From Candidatus Udaeobacter sp. (lineage in GTDB: Bacteria > Verrucomicrobiota > Verrucomicrobiia > Chthoniobacterales > UBA10450), in contig DASREH010000135.1 of the NCBI GenBank assembly GCA_035652195.1, positions 31,151 to 95,150 of the forward strand: a stretch of 64,000 nt of DNA, in the 5' to 3' direction. The number at the start of each line of letters is the position of its first letter. Within the stretch, counting starts at the first letter, position 1. The notes under the pieces are model-generated. The model was not told the origin of the DNA. It saw only the letters and a program-made list of their open reading frames with translations, and did no database searches. A program made the translations under genes and the position numbers. Shown here in pieces: positions 14,874 through 41,581 of this stretch.

Positions 14874-14917
14874 AAAGGATATTCTCGATTGGTATCACCT
14901 AGCGGACCGCGATCAAA

Positions 14918-15439
14918 TCAATTGTGCGGCAGAACAAGGAAGCCGTTGCGATCTTCTTTTCGCTCCCGATAGAGTTGCTCTTTCTCTGTGAGAAAAATAC
15001 GAGCATCTTCGGGATTCATAATTTGGCTCACGCGACGGTGATGCTCCAGTTCTTCGGTCCAGCACGCCTCCCGCTGACGATTGGCTTCTGCGAAGAGCGT
15101 TTGAATTTCCGGCGTGATTTTCTTTGTGCGCTCAAAGAGCGTTTCGACGCGTCTGCGCGTTTTCTCCGCCTCGTTTCGCAAAGCCTTGTAGGTTGCGTGG
15201 TGCTGTTTCTCCAGCTCCTTAAAGGCCCGGAGTTGGTCATCATTCAGATGATATCTCTGACGGAATTGTCTATCGTGATCGGCTTTGGCGGCGTGATAGT
15301 ACATGTAAACAAAGCCGCCAAGAACCACTACGATCATGATCAATAACGCTGCGATTTGAACACGGTCTTTGCGCGTGAGTACCACCGGCTCTGCGCTGCC
15401 TCTCTTGCCACGACGACGTTTGGGCGGCCGTTGGCGCAT
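14918..15439 (-). CDS. Membrane-anchored Spy/CpxP/CnrX-family periplasmic protein (heavy-metal sensor-like)
   Basis: 173 aa. A basic N-terminus and one TM helix precede a helical domain with the LTxxQ-like motif LNDDQLRAFKELEKQHH. It is the last gene of the czc/ATPase unit. Confidence 0.55.
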   Translation of the reverse strand: MRQRPPKRRRGKRGSAEPVVLTRKDRVQIAALLIMIVVVLGGFVYMYYHAAKADHDRQFRQRYHLNDDQLRAFKELEKQHHATYKALRNEAEKTRRRVETLFERTKKITPEIQTLFAEANRQREACWTEELEHHRRVSQIMNPEDARIFLTEKEQLYRERKEDRNGFLVLPHN

Positions 15440-15445
15440 GATGCT

Positions 15446-17623: not shown

Positions 17624-18008
17624 GTTTGCTCCGAGGTGGAGCATGGGTTTGCCAGAAGACGCGCGTAACGTACTGCGGACCGAAGATAGGTGAGTGATAA
17701 CGAATGGAGACTCGCGTGCCGACGCGCAGCGCGTCTGGACTTGTAAAGTCGCTGTCGCGGACCAATTGCGTCCATTTGGCGTCCCAGGCAAAGACAATTG
17801 GCTTTGACTCGCCCGCAGGAAGTAGCGTCAACGTCTTAGCGGTAATCTGCTGCACTACGCCTGACATTTCGCGACTCATTGGAGGCATTGCCTGAATTGA
17901 CGGTGCAAGGCCTAATGTAAGAATCAGGAAAGCGAGCGCGGTCGTTAAAATCGAGCGCCGAACAAGCCTGTCGCCGTTCCTATTCATGGTCGAAAACGAG
18001 AGCTGCAT
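17598..18008 (-). CDS. Small secreted protein, paralog of 18026-18358
   Basis: It has a signal peptide (LAFLILTLGLAPSIQA) and shares a pattern with its neighbour: G-V..(12)..KP(I/L)...W....T..R......P....G..V...Y. An alternative start lies at 17987. Confidence 0.5.
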   Translation of the reverse strand: MQLSFSTMNRNGDRLVRRSILTTALAFLILTLGLAPSIQAMPPMSREMSGVVQQITAKTLTLLPAGESKPIVFAWDAKWTQLVRDSDFTSPDALRVGTRVSIRYHSPIFGPQYVTRVFWQTHAPPRSKHENRNGPA

Positions 18009-24780: not shown

Positions 24781-25386
24781 ATGAAGAAATGGTTTTTCGA
24801 CGCAGATTATCTACAGGCGTGTAATTGCGATTATGGATGTCCCTGCGAATTCGCCGCGCCGCCGACACCGGGCTATTGCCAGGGCGTCGGTGTTTGGAAG
24901 ATCAACAAGGGCAAATATGGCGATCTCTCACTCGACGGCACCGGCCTGGCTTTCGCGGCGAAATGGCCGGGAGCAATTCATGAAGGCAACGGCACCGTCT
25001 GCCTGTTCGTCGATGAAAAAGCTTCGACCGCGCAAAGAGAGGCGTTGCTTGAAATCGGTTCAGGAAAAGCCGGTGGTCTGCCGTTCGAAATATTAGCAAC
25101 GACGTTCAGCACGCTGCTCGAACCGCAATTCGTCCCATTTGACATCAAGATCGATGGCCTTCAAAGCACTGCCCGCCTCGGCGATAACTTTCGGATCGCG
25201 CTCGAACCAATCAAAAATCCGGTCACCGGAAACGCTGAGCAGGTGACGGTGAATCATGGAACTGGATTCATTTTCAAAACGGCCGAGTGCGCATCCGCGC
25301 GGGAGGGATCTGTTGACGTCGACCAAATGAAGTTCAGCTATCCGAACAAAGCCGGCTTCGTCGCGCAAATCCATTACGGCAACTGA
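24781..25386 (+). CDS. DUF1326 family protein
   Basis: The N-terminus MKKWFFDADYLQACNCDYGCPCEF is the characteristic DUF1326 Cys motif. A good SD sequence (CAGGAGG) precedes the ATG. Confidence 0.8.
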   Translation: MKKWFFDADYLQACNCDYGCPCEFAAPPTPGYCQGVGVWKINKGKYGDLSLDGTGLAFAAKWPGAIHEGNGTVCLFVDEKASTAQREALLEIGSGKAGGLPFEILATTFSTLLEPQFVPFDIKIDGLQSTARLGDNFRIALEPIKNPVTGNAEQVTVNHGTGFIFKTAECASAREGSVDVDQMKFSYPNKAGFVAQIHYGN

Positions 25387-25396
25387 CAAGATCGAC

Positions 25397-26200
25397 ATGA
25401 GCGCAGTGGAAACAGTGCTGCGTCGCGATCGATTGATCGTCGGGACCGGGCTCGCTTTCATCGCGATGGCCGCCTGGCTTTACATGATTTACGAAGCGCG
25501 CCGGATGAACATGACGGGCGTGTGCGAATGCATGCGAATGAAGATGGGCGGCCCCGAACTTTCCGACTGGTCCGCAGCTACGCTACCGCCGCTCTTCTTA
25601 ATGTGGTCGGAAATGATGGTGGCAATGATGTTGCCCAGCGCGATGCCAATGATTCTGACTTTCGCGTCGGTTGCGCGCAATCGCCAAAAACAGCGACGAC
25701 CCTATGTCCCAGTCGCAGTTTTCGTTTCGGGCTACATCACGATCTGGTGCGCCTTCAGTCTCGTTGCTGCTCTTAGCCAATGGCTGCTGCATCGACACGC
25801 TTTACTTTCAACTTCGATGGGCAGCACGAGCGCAATCCTCGGCGGCATTCTTCTCCTCGCGGCCGGCGCGTTTCAATTCACGCCGCTAAAAAATAGTTGC
25901 CTCACCCATTGTCGCGGCCCAATGGAATTCATTATGACTCGCTGGCGCGGCGGTTGGCGCGGTGCATTCGCGATGGGGCTTGAGCATGGCGCGTTTTGCA
26001 CCGGTTGTTGCTGGGCCTTGATGATCCTTCTTTTCGTTGCGGGCGTGATGAACCTCCTTTGGATCGCCGCGCTCACCATTCTCGTTTGCTTGGAGAAAGT
26101 GCTGCCTTGTCGCAATCTCGTCAGTGTCGGAACGGGCCTGCTGCTCACTGCTTGGGGCGTCTGTCTGCTGGCCCGACACTTCTTCGAATTAGCCGCGTAA
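25397..26200 (+). CDS. DUF2182 family predicted metal-binding integral membrane protein
   Basis: 267 aa and polytopic. It contains Met/Cys/His-rich motifs (CECMRMKMGG, SCLTHCRGP, EHGAFCTGCCW) and is the usual partner of DUF1326. Confidence 0.8.
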   Translation: MSAVETVLRRDRLIVGTGLAFIAMAAWLYMIYEARRMNMTGVCECMRMKMGGPELSDWSAATLPPLFLMWSEMMVAMMLPSAMPMILTFASVARNRQKQRRPYVPVAVFVSGYITIWCAFSLVAALSQWLLHRHALLSTSMGSTSAILGGILLLAAGAFQFTPLKNSCLTHCRGPMEFIMTRWRGGWRGAFAMGLEHGAFCTGCCWALMILLFVAGVMNLLWIAALTILVCLEKVLPCRNLVSVGTGLLLTAWGVCLLARHFFELAA

Positions 26201-28270: not shown

Positions 28271-28648
28271 CTAATATTTGTCTTGGTCCGGCAGGCGATC
28301 CGCTCGTGGACCTTCGCGGCGCCAAGGCAATTTTCCTTCGATCTCTAGTTGCAGTGACAGACTAAGGAATGTGCGGATGAGAACGATCAATCCCAGGACG
28401 AGGACGTTTTGCATTGTAGGCGCCACCACGACGGTGCGAATGATGTCGCCGGCAATGAGGAACTCGAGGCCCAGCAAAATTGCCCTTCCCACATCCTGCC
28501 GGTAAGCGCGGTAATATTCACCGCTGCCTCCGGTGCGAGGAACTAGGAGTCGAGCCGTTGCAAAGACTGCGCCTCCAACAACGATAAGCACGCCAGCGGC
28601 ATCAACCACGGTCCCGACGATTTCTACAATCTCTCGAAAACGTTCCAT
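28271..28648 (-). CDS. DUF1622 membrane protein
   Basis: 125 aa. ILLGLEFLIAGDIIRTV is typical of DUF1622. Confidence 0.7.
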   Translation of the reverse strand: MERFREIVEIVGTVVDAAGVLIVVGGAVFATARLLVPRTGGSGEYYRAYRQDVGRAILLGLEFLIAGDIIRTVVVAPTMQNVLVLGLIVLIRTFLSLSLQLEIEGKLPWRREGPRADRLPDQDKY

Positions 28649-28667: not shown

Positions 28668-29507
28668 TTAGTGATGCTTGTAGTAGCCCACGCCTTTGAT
28701 GTCGTTCCAGGAAGTCGTCTGGTGGCAGCGATAACACTGATTCACCTGAACTGGGCCGCAGCATTCGGCTACCCGCCAATCTTCTTGTTTGGCCACCGTC
28801 TTCGAGACCATGTTGAAGTGCTCCATGTAATGGCTCGGCGGGGCCTGGTGACATTGAGCGCATGATTGTGATGCGGCGGAGGGATGGCGAAATTCAGAGA
28901 TCGTCCACGCGGTCGTGTTATGGCACGCGGCGCAATCGGTTCCGAAGAAACCGAGATGCCGGTCTTTGGTTTGGTGGCAGGCGGCGCAGTTGAGCACCGC
29001 TTCTTCCGGTCGCAGATGGACGTGTGCCGATTGTTGCGGCATGGAGTGGGTTTCTTCGAGCCAGCGTTTGATCGCCGGCACGTCCACACCGCCTTGCTGC
29101 GGCTGACGTTCGAGTTCCTTGAAGCCTATACGCGCCAGGGCCACGTGATCCATTTTCGCCGTGCGCGCGACAGGCCCCTGGTGTTCCAGATGGCAGGCCG
29201 TGCACGTAGTGATGTTGGCGTGAAAGGCAGTCGGCTGCCGTTGTAGGATCGCTTCGTTGTTGGCATGGCAGACAATGCAGTTCTGCGCCGCAACACCCTT
29301 GACCGGCGTGTGGCAGGCGGCGCAGTTATTTTCGAGAAAGGCATGCGCTTGCGACAAGTCGCCGGGAATGACCGTGTGCTGCCAGGAGGCGGGCGAGAGG
29401 ATCGCGTGGATTGTTCTTTCCCGATGACGAGAGGAAAACGCAAAGAATGCGGACGCGAGGAGCGCAAAAGTAAAAGCCGCAAGGCAGAATGCCTTCCGTA
29501 GCGTCAT
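28668..29507 (-). CDS. Heptaheme c-type cytochrome, membrane-anchored or secreted
   Basis: Seven CxxCH motifs are present: CAACH x3, CIVCH, CTACH, CAQCH and CYRCH. The ATG at 29507 overlaps the upstream stop (ATGA), whereas the track uses GTG at 29516. Confidence 0.85.
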   Translation of the reverse strand: MTLRKAFCLAAFTFALLASAFFAFSSRHRERTIHAILSPASWQHTVIPGDLSQAHAFLENNCAACHTPVKGVAAQNCIVCHANNEAILQRQPTAFHANITTCTACHLEHQGPVARTAKMDHVALARIGFKELERQPQQGGVDVPAIKRWLEETHSMPQQSAHVHLRPEEAVLNCAACHQTKDRHLGFFGTDCAACHNTTAWTISEFRHPSAASQSCAQCHQAPPSHYMEHFNMVSKTVAKQEDWRVAECCGPVQVNQCYRCHQTTSWNDIKGVGYYKHH

Positions 29508-30247
29508 GAAAGCCACCTCAGTCCGAAATGGATTCCTGCCCAGATGTGAAGGGCGAGCAGGACGTAAAGGAGCACGGAGAGAACGATGTGCACCTTCAAA
29601 GCTCGGCTGAACCAGCGCTTGAAGACCTCGTCCGTGCGCACAGCGTACTCCAAGTCCGCGACGGATTCGGCGAGGCGGATGACTTCACCGGCCAGGCCGC
29701 TAGGTGCGAGCTCGATGCCGAACGACGCGAGGCCGGTCACCAAGAGTGAGGCTTTCGGGAGCGCTCTCGCTTCCGGCGGGGAATTCTCGAGCACGCCCCA
29801 CGCATGATCCAGATCGCCCCTCGCCGTCTGCAACAGGAGCAACTTATCTTTGACGTCATGCGTGACGAAGGTGAGCAGATAACGCACAGCAAACCCACTC
29901 ACCACGACGAGCAGCATTACCCCCGTGAGCGTGATCCCGAGCCAGCTGTCGAATTTGTGGCCCGTATGAATGATCGCGAGCAAAGGGCCGAGGATGCCGG
30001 AATAGACGTGCAGCGTAAGCAACGACTGCAACGAGACGCGCGCCGTGATTCGGCTGCGGACAAACGGGATACGCTTTGCGATTACATATGCGAGCGGGAG
30101 GAGCATGAGCACGGCCCCGGCGATCCCAAACGCAGCCCCGACTCCGCTGCCCGCAAAACGCGGCGAGCGATGGACGAAGAAGCCGAGCCACGCCACGAGC
30201 AAGAGGCAGACACCGCCGCTGACGATGATGCCTTCACGCTCCTTCAT
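29504..30247 (-). CDS. Five-TM membrane protein with conserved-looking intramembrane His pairs (possible b-heme/ferric-reductase-like domain)
   Basis: 247 aa. TM3 is LTLHVYSGILGPLLAIIHTGH and the last TM is VHIVLSVLLYVLLALHIWAGIH. The start lies 2 nt after the reductase stop, and the stop overlaps the cytochrome start. Confidence 0.55.
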   Translation of the reverse strand: MKEREGIIVSGGVCLLLVAWLGFFVHRSPRFAGSGVGAAFGIAGAVLMLLPLAYVIAKRIPFVRSRITARVSLQSLLTLHVYSGILGPLLAIIHTGHKFDSWLGITLTGVMLLVVVSGFAVRYLLTFVTHDVKDKLLLLQTARGDLDHAWGVLENSPPEARALPKASLLVTGLASFGIELAPSGLAGEVIRLAESVADLEYAVRTDEVFKRWFSRALKVHIVLSVLLYVLLALHIWAGIHFGLRWLS

Positions 30248-30249
30248 CG

Positions 30250-32208
30250 TTAGGCCTCTACGACCACGTCAGTGATTGGCTTTGCCTGGCAGGCGAGAAT
30301 AATGCCATTGGCTTTGTCATCCTCATCGAGCGCGTCCTGCACCGCCATCTCCACTTCGCCGGAGGTCATCTTAATTTTGCACACGCCGCAGGTGCCCACG
30401 CGGCAGGAGAAATCGATTCCGATGCCGAGCTCCTCTGAGAGTTCTAGGATGCTCTGCTGCGGCGGGCTATCTCCCTTCTCTAGATCCAGGCGAATTTTGG
30501 CCGCCTTGTTGCTCTTCGCGAATGTGACCAGCGGCCCCGTCGCGGGCGCAAGCGGCTTCGCAGTGATCGTTGGCGGTGACGGCGGAGGCCTCGGTGTGCC
30601 GAATTTCTCGGTCTTCACCTGCTCGGGAGGAACTTCCAGTTCAGCCAACAGCGCCTCGGTCGCGTCCATCATCGCTGGTGGCCCGCAGATGTGGATTCTA
30701 CGCGAAGCAATATCGGGTACGATCTGCGTAAGCCATTCTTTCGTGATGCGCTCGCGATGCCCCTGCCAGTCTGTTCCTTCCGCTTTCGACACGGTGATCT
30801 CAAGGTGCAGCTTCGGGTTGCGCTGCTCCAGCGCGGCGAGTTCGTTCTTGAAAATGAAGTCAGTCGGGGTGCGGCACGTATGAATAAAGAAAATTTCTCC
30901 GGACCATAACCGTTCCGTGAGATAACGAGCGATGCTCATCATCGGCGTGATGCCCACGCCGCCGGAGATGAGCACAATGCTGTCGGCCTCAGCGCCGGTG
31001 AAAGTAAATTTCCCCATCGGACCGCCCGCTTCGATTGTGTCGCCGCTTTTAAGCAGATCATCGATGTGACGGGAGACCGCTCCTCGCGGCTCACGCCGCA
31101 CGGTTAAATCGAGATATTCGAGCTCCGTGGGAGAGGACGAGATGGAGTAGGACCGGTTCATTCGCGCGCCGCCGATCCAGAACGACACGTTCAGGAACTG
31201 GCCGGGCACAAAGGTGAATGGAAGAAGGCCGCCATTGTTCGATGGCAGCAGGCGAATCGTTTTCACGCTCGGCGTTTCCGGGGTGACGTTGCCCACGCGA
31301 AGCTGTCCCTGCCAATTCGACGTCAGCACCGCTTGTCCCCTTCTGTTCGAAACGGCTGATGACTGCGCCGCTTTTTCCGCGCTCGTTCCAGCCAGGGTGG
31401 CAGGCGGGCTGCCTCCGGGTGGCGATGATCCTCCGCCCGGTGGCGGTTTATTGCCCGAAGGTCCACCTACTGGAGGCGGACTCTTTCCCAAAAGCGGCGG
31501 TGCTGATCCCGGCGGCGGCGGCCCTTTTCCGCCCTCGATCCGGCCAAAGAGCGCCGCAGCGCGCCGCATCTTGAAGAAATAGAGCACGAGCATGGCGAGC
31601 GCGAAGCCCACCAGCAGCACCATCGTGAAGATGTGAAACAGACTGACGCGCTGATGCGACGCCGGCGCAGCGCCTAACGACAGGTTCATCTCGCGTTTGA
31701 ACCAGGCGAGCGCGACCTCGCGCGGCGCTCGACCTTCCGCGAGCGCGCGATGCGCAGCCAGGCCGCTGTCGTAACGCGCCATGCCTTCATGCAGGCGTGC
31801 GGTCGCATCCTGCATCGCCTTTAGATCGTTCGCGGCGGTCGCGCTTTGCAGAGCACCTAACGACTCGGACATCAAACTCGCGCCAGACTGCATCCGCTCA
31901 TGGGCGGCGCGTTCCACTTCGGCGCGTTTCTCTGGCGAAAGCTCCGGCAGCGACATCAACTCCGGATAAAACTCCTTCTTTTTGGGCACGCCCATCTCCT
32001 TCATCATCTCGCCCATGCCTTCCATCATTCCGCCGCCGGGCTTGGCGCCAGGTGAAGCGCCCATTGCACCAGGAGACGCGCCGGGACTCGTCGCCTGATT
32101 CGGATGATGGCTGGCGTGTTCCTCGGGCGGCATTTGGCCGTAAAGCGCCTGTGACCTAACGAACAGCGCAAATGCGCCGATCAGCGAAAGGGCAACGGTT
32201 GCGCGCAT
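30250..32208 (-). CDS. Fusion protein: signal peptide, Met-rich helical periplasmic domain, TM helix, Pro/Gly-rich linker, FNR-like FAD/NAD(P)H reductase and a C-terminal plant-type 2Fe-2S ferredoxin
   Basis: 652 aa. FAD-binding motif RSYSISS, NAD-binding motif LISGGVGITP, and the 2Fe-2S motif CRVGTCGVCK...C are present. The linker reads GKGPPPPGSAPPLLGKSPPPVGGPSGNKPPPGGGSSPPGG. Confidence 0.85.
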   Translation of the reverse strand: MRATVALSLIGAFALFVRSQALYGQMPPEEHASHHPNQATSPGASPGAMGASPGAKPGGGMMEGMGEMMKEMGVPKKKEFYPELMSLPELSPEKRAEVERAAHERMQSGASLMSESLGALQSATAANDLKAMQDATARLHEGMARYDSGLAAHRALAEGRAPREVALAWFKREMNLSLGAAPASHQRVSLFHIFTMVLLVGFALAMLVLYFFKMRRAAALFGRIEGGKGPPPPGSAPPLLGKSPPPVGGPSGNKPPPGGGSSPPGGSPPATLAGTSAEKAAQSSAVSNRRGQAVLTSNWQGQLRVGNVTPETPSVKTIRLLPSNNGGLLPFTFVPGQFLNVSFWIGGARMNRSYSISSSPTELEYLDLTVRREPRGAVSRHIDDLLKSGDTIEAGGPMGKFTFTGAEADSIVLISGGVGITPMMSIARYLTERLWSGEIFFIHTCRTPTDFIFKNELAALEQRNPKLHLEITVSKAEGTDWQGHRERITKEWLTQIVPDIASRRIHICGPPAMMDATEALLAELEVPPEQVKTEKFGTPRPPPSPPTITAKPLAPATGPLVTFAKSNKAAKIRLDLEKGDSPPQQSILELSEELGIGIDFSCRVGTCGVCKIKMTSGEVEMAVQDALDEDDKANGIILACQAKPITDVVVEA

Positions 32209-32220
32209 CGCTCAAGTCAT

Positions 32221-33033
32221 TTACCACCAAAGCTGCAAGCCCGCGACAAATGCGATCGTGTCCGCAGTCTCGCCTTCGCTGCGAGCTATCTGGGCCGTTT
32301 CGCCAAAGCTGCGCAACCACGAGATGCCGATGTAAGGAGCGATTTCACGCCGGATTTCGTAGCGCAGGCGCAGGCCGAGATCGAGTTCCGTCACTCCGCT
32401 TCCGGTGCTGAATCTTTTGTCGCCTTGAATTGAAACTTCGCCTTGGAAACGCGGCTGCAACACGATGTGCTGAGTCAGCAAAAGATCGACACTTGCTGTC
32501 AGCTCGGCGGAAACTTCGCCGTGATCGCTAATGTAAAGCGCCGGCTCGAAGTCGAACAAGAACGGCGTCAGTCCTTGAAATCCGATTACGGCATAGGTGC
32601 GGCCATTGTTGCCGAGGCCGCCGTTACCCAAATTTGATTTGCCGCGCACGCCGATTTGGAAATCCCAAAACGGCGCGATGAGCCGGCCGTAGAGTAATTG
32701 GAGGTCGCCTTCGCCGCGATAGCCGTCGGAAAGTCTCTGCCGGCCTTCCGTTTTTAACCAGAGTCGATTCCAATCGCCGCCGAACCAGCCCACGAAGTCC
32801 CACACGAACATGGCCGGCCCGGAGCTGTTGTAACGATATTCGAGCAGATCGAAAATAGAGAAACTATTGAATGGGCTGTCATCGACCGGCGGAGGCAGGG
32901 TGTTAATATATTGCTGAAGCTGGGCGCGCGATGGCGGGGAGCCGGGCGCATCCTGCGCGTCGGCATTAATCGACGACATCATCAGCACTGTGGCGGTGAT
33001 GACGATTCCTGAAAAGAAACGCCGAGCTTTCAT
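32221..33033 (-). CDS. copB: Copper resistance protein B (outer membrane)
   Basis: 270 aa. CopB-family strings are present: DLLEYRY, WFGGDWNRLWLKTEG, GLRLRYEIRREIAPYIGISW. The C-terminus ends in W. Confidence 0.9.
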   Translation of the reverse strand: MKARRFFSGIVITATVLMMSSINADAQDAPGSPPSRAQLQQYINTLPPPVDDSPFNSFSIFDLLEYRYNSSGPAMFVWDFVGWFGGDWNRLWLKTEGRQRLSDGYRGEGDLQLLYGRLIAPFWDFQIGVRGKSNLGNGGLGNNGRTYAVIGFQGLTPFLFDFEPALYISDHGEVSAELTASVDLLLTQHIVLQPRFQGEVSIQGDKRFSTGSGVTELDLGLRLRYEIRREIAPYIGISWLRSFGETAQIARSEGETADTIAFVAGLQLWW

Positions 33034-33039
33034 TAAAGG

Positions 33040-34938
33040 CTACGCTCCATTCGGCGTGACGGAGAACACGCGCAGCATGCCCATCTCCATGTGGTAAAGG
33101 ATGTGGCAGTGGAATGCCCACGCACCGGGCGCATCAGCGGTGACGTCCACGGAAAGTTTCTCGCCCGGCTTGAGACCAATTGTGTGCTTGAGCGGATTAT
33201 GCCCGCCGTGGCCGTTGACGAGTTGCATCCACATGCCATGCAAATGCAGCGGGTGTTCCATCATGGTGTCATTGACGAAGGTGAGCCGGACGCGCTCACC
33301 GAGCACAAGCGGAATTGGTTCGGGCGCTTCGGAAAACTTTTTGCCGTCGAACGACCACATGTAACGGTCCATGTTGCCGGTGGCGTGCAGCTCGATTTCG
33401 CGCTGCGGCGGGCGCGAATCGTAGCCGGGCTTGAGCCCGCGCAGATCGCTGTAAGCCAGCACGCGCCACGGCATTTCCTCCAGGCCGTCGCCCGGCTCAT
33501 TTAGCCGGTTTTTCGGCGACTTCGCCACGACTTGATTCTCGGGGCCGTGCTTGTCCGGCCCATGCATTCCGTCCGGCTGCACCAGGCCCGCTTCGGTTCC
33601 GCCGGGCGCGGGAATTGTCGGAATGTTCGCCGGCGGCGTCTCGCTCGGCGAGCGCGCAGTGCCGTGCGACATGCCCGGCATTCTTTGTGCGTTCATTTCG
33701 TTCATTCCCGCCATGCCGGCGTGTTTCTGCGGGGGTGGAGGACCCATCGCCATTCCACCATGCGATCCCACTGCGCCAGACATTCGTTTCATTTCGCCAG
33801 TGCTGCTGCCGCTGGGCATTCCCGCCATGTCCGCCATGCCCATGTCGGCCATCGTGCGCAACGGCCGTTTGCGCCGTTCTGGAATGGCGGCGCTCATACC
33901 GGCGCGCGGCGCGAGTGTCCCGCGCGCATAGCCGCTGCGATCAATTGTCTCGGCAAAAATCGTGTATGCGCGATCCGCCTGCGGGTGCACGATCACGTCG
34001 AACGTCTCCGCAATCGCGATGCGCATTTCGTCCACCGTCACCGGCTTGACGTATTGACCATCGGCCGCCACCACGGTCATCGGCAGTCCGGGTATGCGCA
34101 CATCGAAAAAGGTCGCGGCGCCCGCATTAATGAAACGCAGCCGCACCCGCTCGTCCGGCTTGAAAATGCCGGTCCAGTTCGTTCCGGGCGCGAGGCCATT
34201 CATCAAGTAGGTGTAATGATGCCCGGTCACGTCCGAGATGTCGGTCGGGTCCATGCGCATGAGGCCCCATTCCTTGCGCGCGGCGATGGCGGCCCCGAGG
34301 CCGTCGTTGCTGACATTACGAAAGAAATCGCCGACGGTGCGTCGCTGAAAATTAGAGTAATTGCTTTGCTTTTTTAGTTTCGATAGCAGCAGCTCAGGAT
34401 CGACAAACGTCCAATCGCTCAGCATCACGACATATTCGCGGTCGTAGCCAAACGGCTCGTCGCCGGGCGGATCAATAATGAGCGGCCCGGCGTGACCTGT
34501 TTGTTCCTGAAGCCCGCTGTGGCTGTGATACCAGTAGGTGCCGTGCTGTTTGAGCCGGAAGCGATAGGTGAAAGTCTCGCCGGGCGCGATGCCGGCGAAC
34601 GATACGCCCGGCACACCATCCATTTTCATCGGCACGATCACGCCGTGCCAGTGAATCGAAGTGGCTTTCCTTAGCCGGTTGCTTACTCGAATCACCACCT
34701 GTTCGCCTTCGCGGAAACGGAGCAGTGGACCTGGATAAGTGCCGTTGATTAGTGTGCCGGTAGCTGCGCGTCCACCCACGTCAAGCGCCCGCTCCGCGAT
34801 TTCCAAGTCAACCGCCGGTCCAAGTCCCCTGAGGCGTTGTCCGCTGCGCGCGTAAGCCGGCGTGAAGCGACCCAGCGCGGCAAATAATCCCGCCCCCGCT
34901 GCGCAGCGGATAAAACGGCGCCGCGTAAGATGAGTCAT
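33040..34938 (-). CDS. copA: Copper resistance multicopper oxidase CopA/PcoA
   Basis: Tat signal RRRFIRCAAGAGLF. Cu-site motifs are HWHG, HSH and HCHILYHMEMGM. There is an internal Met-rich region (MADMGMADMAGMPSG...). Confidence 0.95.
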   Translation of the reverse strand: MTHLTRRRFIRCAAGAGLFAALGRFTPAYARSGQRLRGLGPAVDLEIAERALDVGGRAATGTLINGTYPGPLLRFREGEQVVIRVSNRLRKATSIHWHGVIVPMKMDGVPGVSFAGIAPGETFTYRFRLKQHGTYWYHSHSGLQEQTGHAGPLIIDPPGDEPFGYDREYVVMLSDWTFVDPELLLSKLKKQSNYSNFQRRTVGDFFRNVSNDGLGAAIAARKEWGLMRMDPTDISDVTGHHYTYLMNGLAPGTNWTGIFKPDERVRLRFINAGAATFFDVRIPGLPMTVVAADGQYVKPVTVDEMRIAIAETFDVIVHPQADRAYTIFAETIDRSGYARGTLAPRAGMSAAIPERRKRPLRTMADMGMADMAGMPSGSSTGEMKRMSGAVGSHGGMAMGPPPPQKHAGMAGMNEMNAQRMPGMSHGTARSPSETPPANIPTIPAPGGTEAGLVQPDGMHGPDKHGPENQVVAKSPKNRLNEPGDGLEEMPWRVLAYSDLRGLKPGYDSRPPQREIELHATGNMDRYMWSFDGKKFSEAPEPIPLVLGERVRLTFVNDTMMEHPLHLHGMWMQLVNGHGGHNPLKHTIGLKPGEKLSVDVTADAPGAWAFHCHILYHMEMGMLRVFSVTPNGA

Positions 34939-34957: not shown

Positions 34958-35329
34958 TCAGCTCACTTCGAGCACGCGATTCATTGTGCCGTATTCATTG
35001 CAGACGCAGCCATCTCGTCCATCATACACTTGGTCCGGGCCTGGTTCGCAAGACCATTGTCCGTCAATAATGAATTTCCATTCGTAGCGCCCCGTCGCGA
35101 GAGGAAGGGAAATCGACCAGTTGCCCTCGGCGTCGCGCACCAACGGTGTCGCGTCGGGTTGCCAGCCGTTGAAGGTGCCGGCCAGGAATACACTCTGAAC
35201 GTGCGGCGCATTGCAACTGAATTTAACCGGTTTGAGATTTTCCGGCGTTGGATTTGTTTCTGGCGTGGAGTTCATAGAAGCATCTTTCGGTTTTCTTTTT
35301 CGTTTCACGGATTCTTTTTGAAAAATCAC
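34958..35329 (-). CDS. CBM48/early-set (glycogen-binding-like) beta-sandwich domain protein
   Basis: VKFSCNAPHVQSVFLAGTFNGWQ...GRYEWKFIIDGQW is the AMPK-beta/isoamylase N-domain pattern. A GTG at 35329 overlaps the upstream stop, and an alternative ATG lies at 35275. Confidence 0.6.
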   Translation of the reverse strand: MIFQKESVKRKRKPKDASMNSTPETNPTPENLKPVKFSCNAPHVQSVFLAGTFNGWQPDATPLVRDAEGNWSISLPLATGRYEWKFIIDGQWSCEPGPDQVYDGRDGCVCNEYGTMNRVLEVS

Positions 35330-36141
35330 ATGTGATCGCTCATCGGCGATGAGGATGCGGCTGGCGCCGGCGAGGCGAAGCCGGTCAGAATTTTACGCTG
35401 ATCGGGGGTAAGGAGCTTGGCCGCTTCACCAACAGAGCGAATGAAGGAAAGACGCTCGTTGGCGCGAAGCTTTTCAATCTCGCGCACCTTTGCCTCGATC
35501 TTTCCGGTATCGGGCTGATCAGCCGAGGTCAAGGTCGCAAGCTCCTGCTCGTCCTGCTCGATTTGTCGTTCAGCGGAATTCTTGGAGGCAAGCGCCTGGT
35601 CCTTGATTTTGTTGAGCGCCACTTGCTGATCGGTTGAAAGAGCGATGTGGTCGGTGCGATCGAGAAAGAACCCGGTCGCACCGATGTGATAGAGATGCGA
35701 CGCGCCTGGAAAACCGGGCAGAGCTGATCGAGGCATGTTCATTCCCTGCATCCCTTCCATGCCGCTCATCATCCCCATCATGTCCATTCCCTCCATTGGT
35801 CCCATCATGTTCTCCATTCCCTGCATACCGCCCATCTGGCTCATGCCTCCACCGGCCTGCATGCCCATTCCGCTCATGCCTCCGCCAGCGCGCATTCCGG
35901 GCATACTGCCGGGGGAGCCAGGCGGCTGAGAGTGTGCCGTCGCTTCCAATTTTTTAATCTTGGCTTGAAGCTCGGCAATCTGTTGCGCAAGAGCGGCGTC
36001 GCTCGACGGTTGCGCCGTTCCTGTTGCCGGGGTCGACATTTGGGCGGGCAAAGTCACAGTGAATGCCGCGATTGCGATGCTCGCGAGCATCGTGGCAGGC
36101 ACTGGCCTGATCTGAACTAATTTATACATCGATGTTTTCAT
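35326..36141 (-). CDS. Periplasmic Met/Gly-rich protein with a CpxP/Spy-like (LTxxQ) C-terminal domain
   Basis: A signal peptide is followed by about 70 aa of M/G repeats (GSMPGMRAGGGMSGMGMQAGGGMSQMGGMQGMENMMGPMEGMDMMGMMSGMEGMQGMNM). After that come LSTDQQVALNKI and LLTPDQRKIL. Confidence 0.7.
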   Translation of the reverse strand: MKTSMYKLVQIRPVPATMLASIAIAAFTVTLPAQMSTPATGTAQPSSDAALAQQIAELQAKIKKLEATAHSQPPGSPGSMPGMRAGGGMSGMGMQAGGGMSQMGGMQGMENMMGPMEGMDMMGMMSGMEGMQGMNMPRSALPGFPGASHLYHIGATGFFLDRTDHIALSTDQQVALNKIKDQALASKNSAERQIEQDEQELATLTSADQPDTGKIEAKVREIEKLRANERLSFIRSVGEAAKLLTPDQRKILTGFASPAPAASSSPMSDHM

Positions 36142-36655
36142 ATTTCGTATGGTTTGCTGATTTACGAGCCCGCTCTTCCGAACACGTTGGTTTCAAAAAA
36201 TCAGACAACGAAGCAGCGCGCGCCGCTACGCATTCATTCGGAAAGAATGCGCATTTGTTCCGTTGCTGAAGCCCGGGTTTGCCATGTTGCGACGCGCAAC
36301 ACCCGGGAGAAGCACCGCATGCGCCACCAATGAAGAGTTCCGAAACAGCCGCGCGGCAAGTGCGAGCGGGAATAGGCCGAATCATTCCACCCGCTAGACA
36401 CGCTAGCCCATCGAAACTTTGGCTTCGATCTTATCGTGTTTCCGTAAGGATTTTCTGAGCGCAGAAGTTCAGTTGATGCGCCTCTATTCGGCGCGCCAGC
36501 CGATGCTAACCATCGAGTTCGTACTTAAGCTGGCGCTCATACTCCGTGTCGAAATGGTTTTTCAAGTTCCTAATGACAGTATTCGGATTGGCTGACGGAT
36601 TTCGGATTCCACTCAGCGATCACTATCCCGCTGGCATCCTTCTATTCTTGCAATC

Positions 36656-37608: not shown

Positions 37609-38652
37609 TTATGCGTCGGCTATCTTTAATACGACGCGGCCGGTCACTTTGCCTTCCCGTAAGCGTTGGAAAACTTCGTTGATGGCCTCCAGCGGCTGAA
37701 GTTCAATTTGCGCTTTGACCTTGCCTTCACCAGCGAAGTCGAGAGCCTCTTGTAAATCTCGACGCGTGCCGACAATTGAGCCGCGAATCGTAATGCCATT
37801 GAGCACGACATCGAAAATAGGCGTCGGAAAATCTCCGGGCGGCAGGCCAACCAGCGAACAAGTGCCACCGCGACGAACCATCCTGATTCCTTGAAGGAAA
37901 GCGCTGCGCGAGACCGCAGTCACCAGCACGCCGTGCGCGCCGCCGATCTGTTTCTGAATCTCGGTGACGGGATCGCTCTGAGTCGCATTGATCGTCAGAT
38001 CGGCACCGAGTTTGCGGGCCAGCTCGAGTTTATCGTCGCCCACATCCACCGCGGCCACGTGTAGTCCCATCGCTTTGGCGTACTGCACTGCCACATGACC
38101 GAGGCCGCCGATTCCGGAAATAGCTACCCATTGTCCAGGCCGAGTATCGGTCTGCTTGAGACCTTTGTAGGTGGTGACACCAGCACAAACGATAGGCGCG
38201 ATTTCACTGAAAGATGATCTCGCCGGCAGGTGACCCACATAGTTTGCGTCAGCTAAAGCATATTCCGCGTACGCGCCATCCACGGAATACCCACTGTTTT
38301 CCTGTTTGGGGCAAAGCGTTTCCCAGCCTGTCATGCAATACTCACAATACCCGCAGGCGCTGTGTAACCATGCAATGCCGACACGCTCTCCTTCCTTCAC
38401 CGAGCGGACGCCTTTGCCGATGGCGACCGCGTAACCAACGCCTTCATGGCCCGGAATAAATGGCAACTTGGGCTTAACCGGCCAATCACCGTCAGCGGCA
38501 TGAAGATCCGTATGGCACACTCCGCAGGCCACGATCTTTACCAGAACCTGTCCCTCTCCAGGTTCAGGAATCGGAACTTGTTCAATCAAGAGCGGTTTGC
38601 GGAATTCGCGAACCATCGCCGCCTTCATTTGTTGGCCCGCTTTTGTCTTCAT
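37609..38652 (-). CDS. Zinc-dependent alcohol dehydrogenase (AdhP-like)
   Basis: Contains [14 protein letters not shown] and a GLGGLGH Rossmann motif. The start is either ATG at 38652 (ATGA overlap with the upstream stop) or 38628 (MKAAMV). The track start at 38778 was rejected. Confidence 0.92.
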
Positions 38653-39071
38653 GAGCTGGTTTGCGAGATCGGGTGAGGCACCGGGCATTTGAACGGTTTC
38701 TCGCGACAGATGCTGCAGCGATGCTGCAATTTGCCTTCGCGGACGAAAGTCGTAATCGCGCCCTGACAGCCCGGGCATCGATCCTCATAAGTTGTCGGCG
38801 GAAGTGACAAACCGCCCCAAGCGTATGTGCTCCAACCTGGAAAGCCGCCAGGGAATCCAGGATAATAAACATATGGCGGTATCGGCCGGTAAAACGGCAC
38901 CGCAACCATTTTGCATTGCGGGCAAACCAGTGCTTCGCCCGGTTTGTTGCCTGCGTCTCTCGATGCAGCCGTCGATGCGTTTTCGGTAGCGCAACTTTGT
39001 AGCAAAGCGCCAAACGTTAGTGCAACAATTGCTGCCGCAGTTGCCGATTTTGTCTTAACGTCTGCTTTCAT
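38649..39071 (-). CDS. Cys-rich putative lipoprotein (CxxC-knuckle family, paralog A)
   Basis: Lipobox-like LLQSC. The Cys pattern is CPQC...CPGCQG...HRCSIC...C, with a Pro/Tyr/Gly-rich insert. Confidence 0.6.
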
Positions 39072-39077: not shown

Positions 39078-39503
39078 TCAGATGTGATTTGTTTTGGATT
39101 CACCAGACGTAACGATAATTTTCCTGGGACAGCCTGGGCCGCACGGCACGCCGAATTTGCTGGCACGCTGTGTTCGCGAAGAAGTGTCGGACAATACGGG
39201 GCAACGGAATGGCGTTCGCGCACAAATGGAGCATTTATGTTTCCAAGCGCCCTCGCTAACGAATGATTCCAAGACGCCCTTGCAACCGCTGCACGCGGTC
39301 ACGTGACTTGCGCCGGCTCGGCGGCTGTAAGGAAAATGAGACCGTATCCGCATCGTCGCTGCTTCTACAGCGACGGATCTGCATTGCGGGCAAACCAGTG
39401 CTTCGCTGCTGGTAGTCTCAGCGGTCGATACGCAGCCAGCGGTGAAGGCAATAAAAGCAAGGGCGCCGGTTACGGCCGCTGAGTTCGCTGAAAACGATCT
39501 CAT
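39078..39503 (-). CDS. Cys-rich putative lipoprotein (CxxC-knuckle family, paralog B)
   Basis: Lipobox-like FTAGC. The Cys pattern is CPQC...CSGCKG...HKCSIC...C. Its ATG overlaps the stop of the GltD-like gene (ATGA). Confidence 0.6.
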   Translation of the reverse strand: MRSFSANSAAVTGALAFIAFTAGCVSTAETTSSEALVCPQCRSVAVEAATMRIRSHFPYSRRAGASHVTACSGCKGVLESFVSEGAWKHKCSICARTPFRCPVLSDTSSRTQRASKFGVPCGPGCPRKIIVTSGESKTNHI

Positions 39504-41155
39504 AGCCGCACGCTATCGCGACGTTTAATCTCACGCTCCGCATTCGCACGGAAACATTGCCCATTCTTCGTGGTGGCCAGCGGAGCGAATGACGAGTCTG
39601 AACGGCCGATCGTGGTCCATGCAGGAGTCGCAAGACTCCCTCGATGCCCAGCTAGGGAAGTTCCTGAATGAGAAACATTCGCTACGACGGACTCTTCCTC
39701 ACATTGGCTTGGACTTGAGAGGTAGCGATGGATACCGGCCGCGGCTTTGCGTCCATCACGCACCGCGTGAGCAACCAAACTGGGACCGCGCACCAGGTCG
39801 CCACCGGCAAAGACGCCGGGGACGCTGGTCATTTGATTGGCATCGACGATCACGCTTCCCCAGTTGTTGATATCGATCTTGTCCGAATTGCCCGCGGCAA
39901 AGATCGGCACCGGATCGAAGCCGAACGCCACGAGCACCACATCGGCCGGCACGCTGAATTCAGAATTTGGAATGGCGCGCGGCTTGCGCCGTCCTTTCGC
40001 GTCCGCTTCGCCTAATTCCATCCGCACGCAGCGCACTTGCGAGATGTGCCCAGTGCCATCGTCCTGAAGCGCGATCGGATTGGTGAGAAACAAAAACTGC
40101 GCGCCTTCTTCAACTGCGTTGGCGTATTCCTTGCGACTGCCAGGCATGTTGGCCAGATTGCGGCGGTAAAGACAAACCGCTTCGCGCGCGCCGGAGCGAA
40201 TCGCAGTGCGCAAACAATCCATGGCCGTATCGCCGCCACCGACCACGACCACCCGCTTTTCTGAGACATTGACCGCACCGTGGGAAACATCGCCGAGATT
40301 TTTTTCGATGAGAAACGGCAGCGCATCGAAGACGCCGTCCAAATTGGCGCCGGGAATATCGAGCGACTTCGGTTTTTGCGCGCCGATCGCCAGATAAATT
40401 GCATCGAACTGCTCGCGCACGACCGACAACGAAACGTCCCGCCCGATCGTAACGCCGAGCCGAAATTTGACGCCGCGGTCGCGCAAAAGTTCGAGCCGCC
40501 GCTCAACAATTGGTTTCTCCAGCTTGAAGGCAGGAATGCCGTTGACGAGCAGACCGCCGGCGCGTGTTTGCGAATCGAAGATCGTGACCGCGTAACCGAG
40601 TTTGGCCAGTTCATCCGCGCAAGCCATGCCGCCGGGACCGCTGCCTACGATCGCGACGCGCAATCCATTCGGCACAGCGCGCGACGCTTCGACGGCATCA
40701 TGGGCGAACGCGTATTCGTTAATGAATTTTTCGATCGCGCCAATTGCGACCGGATCGGAGCGGGCATTGAGGATGCAGGCGCCTTCACACAATCGCTCCT
40801 GCGGACAAACGCGGCCGCAAATTTCCGGCACGTTGCTGGTCGAGCGGGAAACCGCCGCTGCTTCCAGAAAGCGTCCATCGGCGGCGAGGGCGAGCCAGTC
40901 CGGAATCAAGTTGCCAAGCGGACATCCGATGCGGCAGAGCGGATCCGGGCATTGAATGCAGCGGCTGGCCTGCTCGCGCACGGTTGCTTCATCGAGCAAT
41001 GAGTAGATCTCGTCGAAATCACATACGCGCTCGCTAGCCTCGCGCTTCGGCGGCTCGACACGCGGGATTTTGTACCAGGCCTGCTTCGCCTGGTATCCCG
41101 GCAGCACACGTGCAGCATCGGCGCCACGTTTTTGCGGAGAGTTTGTCACATTCAT
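39500..41155 (-). CDS. GltD-like (glutamate synthase small subunit family) NAD(P)H-dependent FeS flavoprotein oxidoreductase
   Basis: The start was reset to MNVTNSPQ (ATG at 41155, ATGA overlap). Contains CIQCPDPLCRIGCP, VAIVGSGPGGMACA and VVVVGGGDTAMDC. A ~70-aa low-complexity C-terminal tail is present. Confidence 0.9.
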   Translation of the reverse strand: MNVTNSPQKRGADAARVLPGYQAKQAWYKIPRVEPPKREASERVCDFDEIYSLLDEATVREQASRCIQCPDPLCRIGCPLGNLIPDWLALAADGRFLEAAAVSRSTSNVPEICGRVCPQERLCEGACILNARSDPVAIGAIEKFINEYAFAHDAVEASRAVPNGLRVAIVGSGPGGMACADELAKLGYAVTIFDSQTRAGGLLVNGIPAFKLEKPIVERRLELLRDRGVKFRLGVTIGRDVSLSVVREQFDAIYLAIGAQKPKSLDIPGANLDGVFDALPFLIEKNLGDVSHGAVNVSEKRVVVVGGGDTAMDCLRTAIRSGAREAVCLYRRNLANMPGSRKEYANAVEEGAQFLFLTNPIALQDDGTGHISQVRCVRMELGEADAKGRRKPRAIPNSEFSVPADVVLVAFGFDPVPIFAAGNSDKIDINNWGSVIVDANQMTSVPGVFAGGDLVRGPSLVAHAVRDGRKAAAGIHRYLSSPSQCEEESVVANVSHSGTSLAGHRGSLATPAWTTIGRSDSSFAPLATTKNGQCFRANAEREIKRRDSVRL

Positions 41156-41490
41156 GAGTGCGGCGCGCCCTTGCAATCGGCGCAGAGATGTTTTTGTGCC
41201 GGCTGAAAATACGGCGCCGCCGGCCATTTTGCCGAAGAAACCTGCCATGCACCGGCAGAATAACCCCAGTGCCAGTACGCAGGGCCCCAGTCCCACGCGT
41301 TCCGGCAGGTCGTGCACGCATCGGCCATCGGGACGGCGCCGGCTTTTCCGCATTTTGCGCAGCCGGGCGGTTCTTCTGCTTTCTCCCCGCCTCGGGCTGG
41401 GCCGCCAACTAACAGCGCCAATGAAAGTCCGGTCAGCAGCGTGACCTGCGACATCGCACGTCCGATACTTTTGAGGCCGAATCCTTTCAT
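41152..41490 (-). CDS. Exported Cys- and Trp-rich small protein
   Basis: The start was reset to MKGFGLKSIG... (ATG at 41490), preceded by GGAGAG. It has a signal-like helix followed by CAKC...CTTC...CADC. Confidence 0.5.
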   Translation of the reverse strand: MKGFGLKSIGRAMSQVTLLTGLSLALLVGGPARGGEKAEEPPGCAKCGKAGAVPMADACTTCRNAWDWGPAYWHWGYSAGAWQVSSAKWPAAPYFQPAQKHLCADCKGAPHS

Positions 41491-41581
41491 AGACTCTCTC
41501 CATTTCTTATAACGCCGTCCGGCATTTTTCTTCCCACCACCTTTTGCCAAAAGCTCACCATTAGTTGCTGTCCGTTCACGG

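Follow-up and report, generated by a model that had tools for sequence, protein, structure and literature searches.

Gene content of the locus

We analysed a 64,000-bp stretch of contig DASREH010000135.1 (assembly GCA_035652195.1, Candidatus Udaeobacter sp.), referred to below as the window, in which the copper-resistance genes copA and copB stand in one gene string with a reductase, a membrane protein and a multiheme cytochrome that may together carry electrons out of the cytoplasm and into the periplasm. The whole string lies on the minus strand. Read along that strand, it begins with a Met/Gly-rich Spy/CpxP/ZraP-like periplasmic protein of 271 aa (35326..36141), followed by a small protein of 123 aa without a signal peptide that resembles CBM48 and AMPK1_CBM domains (34958..35329; PF16561, E = 2e-12; PF02922, E = 5e-9). 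Next come a copA/pcoA-type multicopper oxidase with a Met-rich insert (33040..34938) and the copB/pcoB outer-membrane protein (32221..33033). The former carries three Cu-oxidase Pfam domains and scores 806 bits against the copper_res_A model TIGR01480 (cutoff 479), and the latter matches PF05275 (E = 1.2e-70), which together identify the pair as CopA and CopB. The last three genes, which we call the triad, encode a 652-aa FNR-type FAD/NAD(P)H reductase with a 2Fe-2S domain (30250..32208), a 247-aa five-helix membrane protein (29504..30247) and a heptaheme c-type cytochrome (28668..29516, with the probable start ATG at 29507). A gene for a DUF1622 small membrane protein (28271..28648; PF07784, E = 2e-24), an occasional member of the cluster, follows 19 nt downstream of the cytochrome gene.

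The spacing between copB and the reductase gene is 12 nt, only 2 nt (TAA-CG-ATG) separate the stop of the reductase gene from the start of the membrane-protein gene, and the stop of the latter overlaps the cytochrome start as ATGA, via the conserved ATG at 29507. An earlier reading of this DNA, made from the letters without database searches (the sequence-only reading), had placed three genes downstream of copA-copB with just such 2-nt and ATGA junctions, and this arrangement was confirmed on the minus strand when the coordinates were checked. A scan for promoters and terminators between 26000 and 37600 found no convincing terminator inside the gene string, and the counts of both signals in this interval were not above those in shuffled sequence. 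About 500 nt of non-coding DNA lie upstream of the gene for the Spy-like protein. In the same region, at 36230-36250, we considered the palindrome GCATTC-N9-GAATGC as a candidate operator and rejected it, as it was absent from all 92 of the other loci compared and no rarer than chance. Neither tRNA genes nor Rfam matches were found in the window.

The five-helix membrane protein

The 247-aa protein is identical (100%) to a hypothetical protein from a metagenome-assembled genome (MAG) of Candidatus Udaeobacter (Verrucomicrobiota), and invariant histidines, an AlphaFold model and sub-threshold Pfam matches point to an inner-membrane, putatively di-heme, b-type cytochrome. The model (mean predicted local distance difference test score, pLDDT, 92.4) has five transmembrane (TM) helices, with a long helical hairpin of ~85 residues (residues ~125-215) joining TM4 and TM5. 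Two histidine pairs, H80/H94 in TM3 and H220/H234 in TM5, each spaced H-x13-H, lie inside the helices where the sequence-only reading had put them. Their conservation across homologues, which that reading had named as a check, holds over a wide range: all four are invariant in 80 close homologues and in a set of 46 sequences reaching down to 27% identity, in which just four more columns are invariant. An SG motif on TM4 is also conserved among the relatives, and two further histidines, H26 and H97, are invariant only within the close, copper-linked clade. The TM4-TM5 hairpin holds the invariant motifs 'LLQTARGDLD' and 'ADLEYA'. With five K/R residues in the TM2-TM3 loop, the positive-inside rule would place this hairpin in the cytoplasm; H80 would then pair with H220 on the cytoplasmic side and H94 with H234 on the periplasmic side, the members of each pair lying at equal depths.

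The comparison of this spacing with the di-heme b domains of ferric reductases and MsrQ proved apt for the pattern of paired histidines on TM3 and TM5. It did not extend to homology, for which all matches were sub-threshold, with five helices here against six there. When scanned for Ferric_reduct, DUF4405 and cytochrome b families, the window's protein was itself without a match. Among the 46 relatives, 14 matched Ferric_reduct (PF01794) at E <= 1 (best 0.004, all sub-threshold; the window's protein had no such match at E <= 0.1), and sub-threshold matches that the window's protein does not share were found to DUF4405 in 20 (best E = 5e-5) and to Ni_hydr_CYTB in eight (best 3e-5). Apart from scattered matches at chance level, heme b families were the only ones matched by more than a handful of these sequences. 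A profile of the family lined up the TM3 histidine pair and the accompanying 'HTGxxF', in register, with the heme ligands that csNOX5 (5o0t) has on TM3 (E = 0.38), and hhalign of the same profile against single sequences gave no signal with E. coli MsrQ (probability 0.2%) or E. coli YodB. Membership of the FRD family (PF01794) is thus not established.

Homologues of the 247-aa protein fall into 2527 clusters, with 754 representative clusters at 50% identity. Among the top 120 homologue clusters none has an informative name that is not automatic, and 'hypothetical protein' is all that is given; the automatic UniProt and PGAP names of several homologues are 'iron reductase' and 'Ferric reductase like transmembrane component'. 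Two unusual relatives came to light. One metagenomic protein of 545 aa (P0124) carries a DUF547 domain fused to the C-terminus of a five-helix homologue (E = 2e-16), which suggests that the five-helix family is used with other periplasmic partners as well. The other, an apparent fusion of the FNR-ferredoxin and membrane proteins (P0180), comes from a single 1.9-kb contig, and its junction looks like an out-of-frame or frameshift read-through; we did not count it as evidence.

The reductase and its periplasmic domain

The 652-aa protein was described in the sequence-only reading as a membrane-anchored FNR-like reductase with a C-terminal 2Fe-2S ferredoxin. The reductase and the 2Fe-2S domain stand, with matches to FAD_binding_6 (residues 332-402, E = 1.7e-12), NAD_binding_1 (413-518, E = 4.4e-19) and Fer2 (582-644, E = 1.1e-14). 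What is more than a bare anchor is the N-terminal part: in an alignment of 46 sequences and in the AlphaFold model, residues 1-189 (31642..32208) comprise a signal peptide and a conserved periplasmic domain rich in conserved His and Met, followed by a TM helix (residues ~190-222) with a Pro-rich cytoplasmic linker (to ~299; together 31312..31641), and then by the cytoplasmic FNR domain (~300-540) and the 2Fe-2S ferredoxin domain (~575-652), which occupy 30250..31311 (PF00970, PF00175, PF00111).

Across 67 homologues the cofactor motifs are kept, namely RxYS, GGxGxxP, CGP and the cysteines of CxxGxCGxC...C. Of the named families, GbcB, Hcr and PaaE come nearest, each scoring far below its cutoff (218 bits against 500 for GbcB), and the closest sequences in the PDB are the reductases 5ogx, 1krh and 2pia of the phthalate dioxygenase reductase (PDR)/BenC type. 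By its domains and motifs, the protein fits the class of FNR reductases with a C-terminal plant-type 2Fe-2S domain, yet belongs to no characterised enzyme family.

In the periplasmic domain, the same 46-sequence alignment shows an invariant 'EEHASHHP' motif (H31, H34, H35) just after the signal peptide and a Met-rich stretch, 'GGMMEGMGEMMKEM', with five conserved methionines (M61, M65, M68, M69 and M72). A helical domain follows at residues 92-173 (pLDDT >90), and an invariant juxtamembrane motif, 'KMRRAAALFGRIE', lies at the TM helix. This periplasmic domain has no Pfam match, and a fold search of the PDB with it returned generic helical hairpins only. It is fused to the reductase, as in the window, in 34 loci and encoded by a separate gene in 25. 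We also considered whether the Spy-like protein is a paralogue of this domain, and BLASTP found no such relationship. One metagenomic protein of 407 aa (P0290) joins a homologue of the His/Met domain to a CBM48/AMPK1_CBM domain; this is either a real fusion or a merge made in gene calling.

The heptaheme cytochrome

The third protein of the triad is a predicted periplasmic cytochrome whose N-terminal hydrophobic segment, a signal or anchor, is consistent with export. Its seven CxxCH motifs, at residues 65, 80, 105, 177, 195, 219 and 261, agree with the sequence-only reading, and the number is conserved: 70 of the 72 homologues have exactly seven, and the seven positions are fully or nearly fully conserved, so that attachment of seven hemes is predicted. 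Outside these motifs there are 9-10 invariant histidines, sufficient for bis-His ligation of every heme, and this supply of spare ligands suggests a wire of six-coordinate hemes rather than a protein with an open catalytic heme. A further conserved motif, 'PPSHYMxHFxM', is also present. Matches to Pfam are weak (Paired_CXXCH_1 and the cytochrome c3/c7 families), with no significant match to a named cytochrome family. The window's cytochrome has in addition a lineage-specific insert, 'RVAECCGPVQV', with a Cys-Cys pair (28761-28766, residues 252-253); the insert is missing from 78% of homologues.

Conservation and spread of the module

To survey gene order we scanned one genome per species, which yielded 121 relatives, of which 80 loci were kept; counts of neighbouring genes use the 44 well-flanked loci, in which 5 kb or more of sequence is present on either side. 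The FNR-ferredoxin gene is immediately upstream of the membrane-protein gene in 62 of the 64 loci with enough flanking sequence, and the heptaheme cytochrome gene immediately downstream in 69 of 72. Some 80 genomes, drawn from more than 10 phyla, keep the triad in this order, and this repeated gene order excludes a chance arrangement. The Spy-like gene is found upstream of the triad in 33 of the 44 loci, and the CBM48-like gene is present in 25. In a relative of the membrane protein at 30% identity, the flanking genes encode a stand-alone 2Fe-2S ferredoxin of 88 aa and a multiheme cytochrome, indicating that the 2Fe-2S/b/c core persists without the FNR part.

Copper oxidases accompany the triad in most genomes, which bears out the suggestion that the triad would be syntenic with cop genes elsewhere: in 37 of the 44 loci, copAB or a different multicopper oxidase is encoded no more than 10 kb away. 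Full-length copA and copB are present in 24 loci, another multicopper oxidase, often a two-domain protein of ~560 aa, in 13, and neither in seven. The position of copAB is less constant. It is downstream of the cytochrome gene in most loci and upstream in some, and in the window it sits between the CBM48-like gene and the reductase gene. The description of the triad as embedded in the copAB operon is therefore correct for this genome and does not carry over to others, where the position of copAB relative to the triad varies. The conserved unit is a module of five genes (Spy-like protein, CBM48-like protein, reductase, heme-b protein and cytochrome), and copAB is its frequent but movable partner. 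Among the loci with a different oxidase, copAB is replaced by a ~560-aa protein with only Cu-oxidase_3 and Cu-oxidase_2 domains at 4259-5944 of locus L050 and also in L011, L024, L026, L030, L037, L041, L044 and L078. This replacement is seen in many loci of Planctomycetota and Acidobacteriota, and the gene for the ~560-aa oxidase is often beside one for an outer-membrane efflux protein.

The membrane protein is 67-80% identical across phyla, compared with 46-63% for CopA in the same loci. The groups in this range include Verrucomicrobiota, Planctomycetota, Acidobacteriota, Alpha-, Beta-, Gamma- and Deltaproteobacteria, Elusimicrobiota, Chloroflexi and others, and the sources include closed chromosomes and the isolates Variovorax WDL1, Variovorax JS1663, Methylotenera mobilis 13 and Acidobacteriaceae TAA166. 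Homologues are found on 54 plasmids, 27 of them predicted to be conjugative. Plasmid pBBta01 of Bradyrhizobium BTAi1, where tblastn finds three matching places, carries the full triad twice, and one of these copies is disrupted by IS3. In the disrupted copy (L083, 7093-11998), which is the nearer to the window at 74% identity, an IS3 transposase cuts the reductase down to its last ~210 residues; the second copy, which is nearby and more divergent, is intact. On Sphingobium SYK-6 pSLPG and Variovorax WDL1 plasmid 3, the module is accompanied by genes for a MerR-type regulator, DUF1622, four-helix-bundle copper proteins, DUF411, adhP and copAB. The DUF1622 gene is present in seven of the 44 loci, and it adjoins the triad in L038, L068 and Sphingobium SYK-6 pSLPG.

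One homologue is on a Legionella pneumophila plasmid, and the L. pneumophila Philadelphia-1 chromosome has a version 42% identical to that of the window beside an N-type ATPase operon and a CopA-CopB fusion oxidase. The fusion, at 14836-17910 of the two L. pneumophila loci L091 and L092 (including AE017354.1), is a protein of 1024 aa with three Cu-oxidase domains and a CopB domain. The chromosomal copy is probably inside the 'efflux island' that is reported to be up-regulated in the post-exponential/transmissive phase (PMC3048289).

Copper context and island neighbours

Judging from the sequences, the connection of the module to copper is independent of copAB, as it appears also in the His/Met domain of the reductase, in the Met-rich Spy-like partner, in the cytochrome motif 'PPSHYMxHFxM' and in the surrounding copper genes. 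The Spy-like protein of the window scores 28.5 bits against PF13801 (cutoff 29.2), 18.6 bits against LTXXQ and E = 2e-7 against ZraP (NF008584), and its BTAi1 homologue reaches 74 bits against LTXXQ; in PGAP annotation the homologues go by the names 'periplasmic heavy metal sensor' or 'Spy/CpxP family'. Across the loci, neighbours of copper type include Csp-like four-helix-bundle proteins, DUF411 and copper-binding proteins, a MerR-type regulator and Cus-type RND pumps. The window as a whole is a metal-resistance island, with three Cus-like RND systems, a P1B ATPase with an HMA domain, a Zn-dependent alcohol dehydrogenase and a PocR-AraC regulator. No copC or copD was found among the surrounding window genes examined.

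Another recurrent group of neighbours consists of genes for sugar and alcohol enzymes. De novo clustering of neighbours in the 44 loci gave a PF10091 glucanase in 13, glucose-6-phosphate dehydrogenase in 12, a Zn-dependent alcohol dehydrogenase in 10 (plus the window, where it lies at 37609..38778 on the minus strand and has the Pfam domains ADH_N and ADH_zinc_N) and GH130 in three. At least one of these four is present in 27 of the 44 loci (for example L007, L010, L024, L037, L041 and L057), and glucose-6-phosphate dehydrogenase or alcohol dehydrogenase genes are found in 19 of the 44 islands. The PF10091 'glycoamylase' is 66-86% identical across phyla, adhP lies between the triad and copAB on the Variovorax WDL1 and Sphingobium SYK-6 plasmids, and a gene resembling glycogen-debranching enzymes is next to one copy of the module on the BTAi1 plasmid. 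We speculate that these genes, together with the CBM48-like gene, form the island's own supply of NAD(P)H.

Several other genes of the window are unusual in their own right. A plus-strand gene pair between two metal-efflux clusters encodes a DUF1326 protein (24781-25386) and, downstream of it, a PpoB2 'copper chaperone' membrane protein (25397-26200). One of the Cus-like RND pumps (6972-10652) has a C-terminal YtkA-like domain, and its adaptor (5602-6975) has an N-terminal HMBD. A protein of 448 aa with a VKOR domain and SPW repeats (13220-14566) adjoins an epimerase and the P1B ATPase. Between the alcohol dehydrogenase and a Cus-type pump, positions 39500-41503 encode a 667-aa GltD-like NAD(P)H-linked Fe-S flavoprotein (Fer4_20 and Pyr_redox_2) with an N-terminal extension of ~160 residues.

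Previous records of the triad

Our full-text searching of the literature found no functional study of the module. The one earlier mention that came up was in Supplementary Table 6 of He et al. 2017 (Front Microbiol 8:1584, PMC5566968). Its entries are cytochromes with seven hemes (256-258 aa), five-helix proteins carrying two HX13H motifs (231-235 aa) and 'redox proteins' (608-702 aa) from Bradyrhizobium japonicum strains and R. palustris TIE-1. Next to multiheme cytochromes, the authors describe inner-membrane proteins of five helices in which TM4 carries SGxxG and both TM3 and TM5 carry HX13H. They give no function, judge a role in extracellular electron transfer unlikely, and propose a quinone-reactive cytochrome b. 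Their PCC3/PCC4 proteins, of ~300 aa and associated with porins, are according to the authors not detectably homologous to the Table 6 group. In the accessible parts of the article we found nothing on the domain make-up of the 'redox protein', a link to copper, a periplasmic His/Met domain or mobility.

Compared by the listed sizes and features, the triad of the window is of this type, with a cytochrome of 282 aa and seven CxxCH motifs, a membrane protein of 247 aa with five helices and two HX13H pairs, and a reductase of 652 aa. In the BTAi1 copy (258, 234 and 597 aa), the cytochrome and the membrane protein fall within the listed sizes and the reductase is just under the listed range; its membrane protein is 41% identical to that of the window (E = 3e-45), and its cytochrome has the same seven CxxCH motifs and the same C-terminal motifs. 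The cluster contains no porin of the porin-cytochrome type; an outer-membrane protein, CopB, is nevertheless encoded in this gene string and in those of 24 of the 44 loci. The sequence-only reading knew of no described cop/pco system with such a module. We likewise found none in the cop/pco literature, although the triad itself had already been tabulated, without a function, in PMC5566968.

A proposed electron path

On balance, we lean towards the view that the five genes are a horizontally mobile copper-stress module. It would take electrons from NAD(P)H in the cytoplasm and export them to the periplasm, where Cu(II) is the acceptor that we favour. The parts of this proposal differ in strength. 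A link of the module to copper stress is very probable; an architecture for electron export, as deduced from the domains and ligands, is likely; and Cu(II) as the terminal acceptor is a tentative and rather doubtful assignment. The sequence-only reading took the three proteins for a split chain in NOX/FRE style that leads from cytoplasmic NAD(P)H to a multiheme protein in the periplasm. Its list of parts is correct and its view of the chain is supported; the histidines are invariant and the partners are conserved, and the function is suggested by these.

In the proposed path, NAD(P)H would reduce FAD in the cytoplasmic FNR-type domain, and the flavin would pass electrons to the C-terminal 2Fe-2S cluster of the same polypeptide. 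The 2Fe-2S domain would then dock onto the cytoplasmic TM4-TM5 hairpin of the five-helix protein, which may serve as the docking surface by analogy with the similarly placed D-loop of NOX. We take the Fe-S protein to be the direct donor because it is always adjacent and because the Fe-S/b/c core survives in the 30%-identical relative. Electrons would cross the membrane via two bis-His b hemes, from the inner (H80/H220) to the outer (H94/H234), and from there enter the wire of seven bis-His c hemes in the periplasm. The acceptor could be periplasmic Cu(II), possibly also Cu(I), held on the His/Met domain of the reductase, on the 'PPSHYMxHFxM' motif of the cytochrome or on the Spy-like protein. 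Reduction of Cu(II) would yield Cu(I), which Met-rich carriers might pass to Cu(I)-specific Cus-type pumps or to CopA/CopB. When NAD(P)H sends electrons outward by way of low-potential hemes, as happens in NOX, the transfer runs downhill and the membrane potential assists it. What we observe are the order of the genes, their domains, the conserved motifs, the distribution across taxa and the linkage to copper genes; we infer the occupancy by heme and Fe-S, the topology, the direction of flow, the docking site and the acceptor.

Alternative explanations

Several observations weigh against the NAD(P)H-to-copper path. The 247-aa protein and its family reach the threshold of no Pfam or NCBIfam model, and a Foldseek search of the PDB with the AlphaFold model of the protein returned nothing at E < 0.4 and no FRD structure among the top 50, the top entries being ABC-transporter helices and cytochrome b561 (probability 0.3). 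Its two b hemes are putative, read from the positions of the histidines. The preference of the reductase for NADPH or NADH is not readable from the sequence, the relevant strand being poorly conserved. Seven of the 44 loci lack a multicopper oxidase within 10 kb, and the spread of the module is somewhat overstated because the MAGs labelled Bifidobacterium, Akkermansia and Heliobacteriaceae probably contain mis-binned contigs. Finally, a cupric reductase encoded together with the Cu(I) oxidase CopA looks antagonistic, although the two could serve different oxygen regimes or copper pools.

Two of the alternatives keep the chain and change its acceptor, and we regard each as improbable. The first is that the chain reduces Fe(III) or another metal or metalloid, acting as a periplasmic ferric reductase that would restore the supply of Fe(II) when copper stress and the ferroxidase activity of the multicopper oxidase lead to iron starvation. 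The names 'iron reductase' and 'Ferric reductase like transmembrane component' would fit, but they are automatic and not experimental. Multiheme cytochromes are generally known to reduce many metals, the triad was tabulated in Fe(II)-oxidising Bradyrhizobium strains and R. palustris TIE-1 (He et al. 2017), and 10.1101/2024.09.04.611240 cites work by others that links the Legionella multicopper oxidase family to iron. Against this, the invariant His/Met motifs and the Met-rich Spy-like partner are typical of copper sites and not of iron sites, and the genes nearby are for proteins of copper handling and for Cus pumps rather than for Feo, Efe or siderophore functions. The same chain might instead supply reducing power for protection of the periplasm, for example by reduction of H2O2, superoxide or O2 at the cytochrome or by delivery of electrons to CopA or to oxidised periplasmic proteins when copper drives oxidative stress. 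The first gene of the module does encode a homologue of envelope-stress chaperones of the Spy/CpxP type, low-potential bis-His hemes can react with O2 and peroxide, as is generally known, and export of electrons for periplasmic repair has a precedent in MsrPQ (PMC12525009). The module, however, includes no partner resembling MsrP, a peroxidase or a thiol oxidoreductase, each heme appears to have a conserved sixth ligand so that no open catalytic heme is evident, and the oxidation of Cu(I) by CopA needs no external electrons.

A different role for the membrane protein itself is less probable still. In the proposal made by He et al. 2017 for five-helix HX13H proteins of the PCC3/PCC4 type, it would be a quinone-reactive cytochrome b; the b/c pair would then join the quinone pool and the periplasm in either direction, for example in oxidation of Cu(I) or Fe(II), and the FNR-ferredoxin protein would have some other role. 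The weak matches of relatives to the quinone-reactive family Ni_hydr_CYTB are in keeping with this, as are Geobacter b/c complexes of the Cbc type, which are quinol-linked. On the other side, the 2Fe-2S protein is always encoded upstream in close and distant relatives, with 2-nt spacing or a stop/start overlap, and no quinone-site motif is identifiable. Thermodynamic reasoning adds that oxidation of Cu(I) into quinone or NAD(P)+ would be uphill and opposed to the membrane potential. Very improbable, in our judgement, is a metal channel or transporter in which the TM histidines bind copper rather than heme. Histidines in TM helices line some copper transporters, as is generally known, and H26 and H97 are extra histidines found invariant in the copper-linked clade only; but bis-heme bundles have as their signature the pattern seen here, with two helices that each carry an H-x13-H pair and with the depths matched, an Fe-S flavoprotein and a multiheme cytochrome are partners in essentially every locus, and all of the weak family matches are to heme b families.

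Significance

Models of copper handling in Gram-negative bacteria comprise pumps, chaperones and a Cu(I) oxidase, without dedicated delivery of electrons to periplasmic copper. If the proposed path is correct, a redox arm would be added to copper resistance, a protein family already noticed near the multiheme cytochromes of iron-oxidising bacteria would acquire a function, and bioelectrochemistry would gain a compact, self-contained conduit from NAD(P)H to the periplasm. The module is common (the 2527 homologue clusters and 54 plasmids noted above) and unusually conserved, and it is still mostly annotated as 'hypothetical'. Copies exist in cultured, tractable hosts, namely L. pneumophila Philadelphia-1, Bradyrhizobium BTAi1, Sphingobium SYK-6, Variovorax WDL1 and Methylotenera mobilis 13. 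In its fullest form, the module would be without precedent in bacteria as a NOX/Fre-like heme wire that runs on NAD(P)H and is dedicated to metal detoxification: a mobile periplasmic cupric reductase that reduces copper and passes it on, with its own Cu(II)/Cu(I)-binding domain and often its own supply of reductant, maybe depositing Cu(0), and built on a five-helix protein that represents a new structural family of transmembrane electron carriers. We consider this complete version unlikely.

Comparison with known systems

The closest parallel is the FRD family (NOX, Fre, STEAP and SpNOX/csNOX5; PF01794), in which NAD(P)H reduces a flavin and electrons pass through two stacked bis-His b hemes to an acceptor outside, as proposed here. 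The topology of TM1-TM5 and the histidine pairs on TM3 and TM5 are alike, and by analogy with the NOX D-loop the TM4-TM5 loop is the likely docking site. Eukaryotic Fre and STEAP reduce Cu(II) (reviewed in PMC7558416). The differences are considerable, however. FRD proteins have six helices and the protein of the module five, and there is no significant match in sequence or fold. The dehydrogenase of the module is a separate polypeptide of PDR/BenC type that places a 2Fe-2S cluster between flavin and hemes, and the module adds a seven-heme c wire on the outside and a TM4-TM5 helical hairpin of ~85 residues. The MsrQ (YedZ)/Fre/MsrP system likewise has a di-heme b membrane protein that connects a cytoplasmic NAD(P)H:flavin reductase to a periplasmic partner in envelope stress, but that partner is a molybdoenzyme, whereas here it is a multiheme cytochrome and the donor is a dedicated, co-encoded Fe-S flavoprotein.

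The reductase by itself resembles phthalate dioxygenase reductase, BenC, Hcr, PaaE and GbcB in its cofactor motifs and in the order FAD_binding_6, NAD_binding_1 and C-terminal Fer2. Unlike the oxygenase reductases, it is tethered through a TM helix and a Pro-rich linker to a periplasmic His/Met domain, and its partner is a membrane cytochrome, not an oxygenase. With respect to copper, CcoG is the only specific bacterial cupric reductase named in a 2020 review (PMC7558416), where it stands against the heme-based eukaryotic Fre, STEAP and Dcytb. It too is membrane-bound, with a proposed role in reducing Cu(II) to Cu(I) in bacterial copper handling. CcoG, however, uses two 4Fe-4S clusters on the cytoplasmic side in assembly of cbb3 oxidase; it has no hemes, flavin or periplasmic wire, and no homology to the module.

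Two further systems share part of the principle. DsbD and ScsB-ScsC also bring reducing equivalents to the periplasm, and Scs is linked to copper, but they use relays of Cys and not hemes. Geobacter CbcL and CbcBA combine b hemes with multiheme c proteins as the triad does; they draw on respiratory quinol, without NAD(P)H/Fe-S input or a copper context. Transmembrane export of electrons from flavin to heme is thus a known principle, and what would be new in the module is a version of it built on an uncharacterised family of heme proteins.

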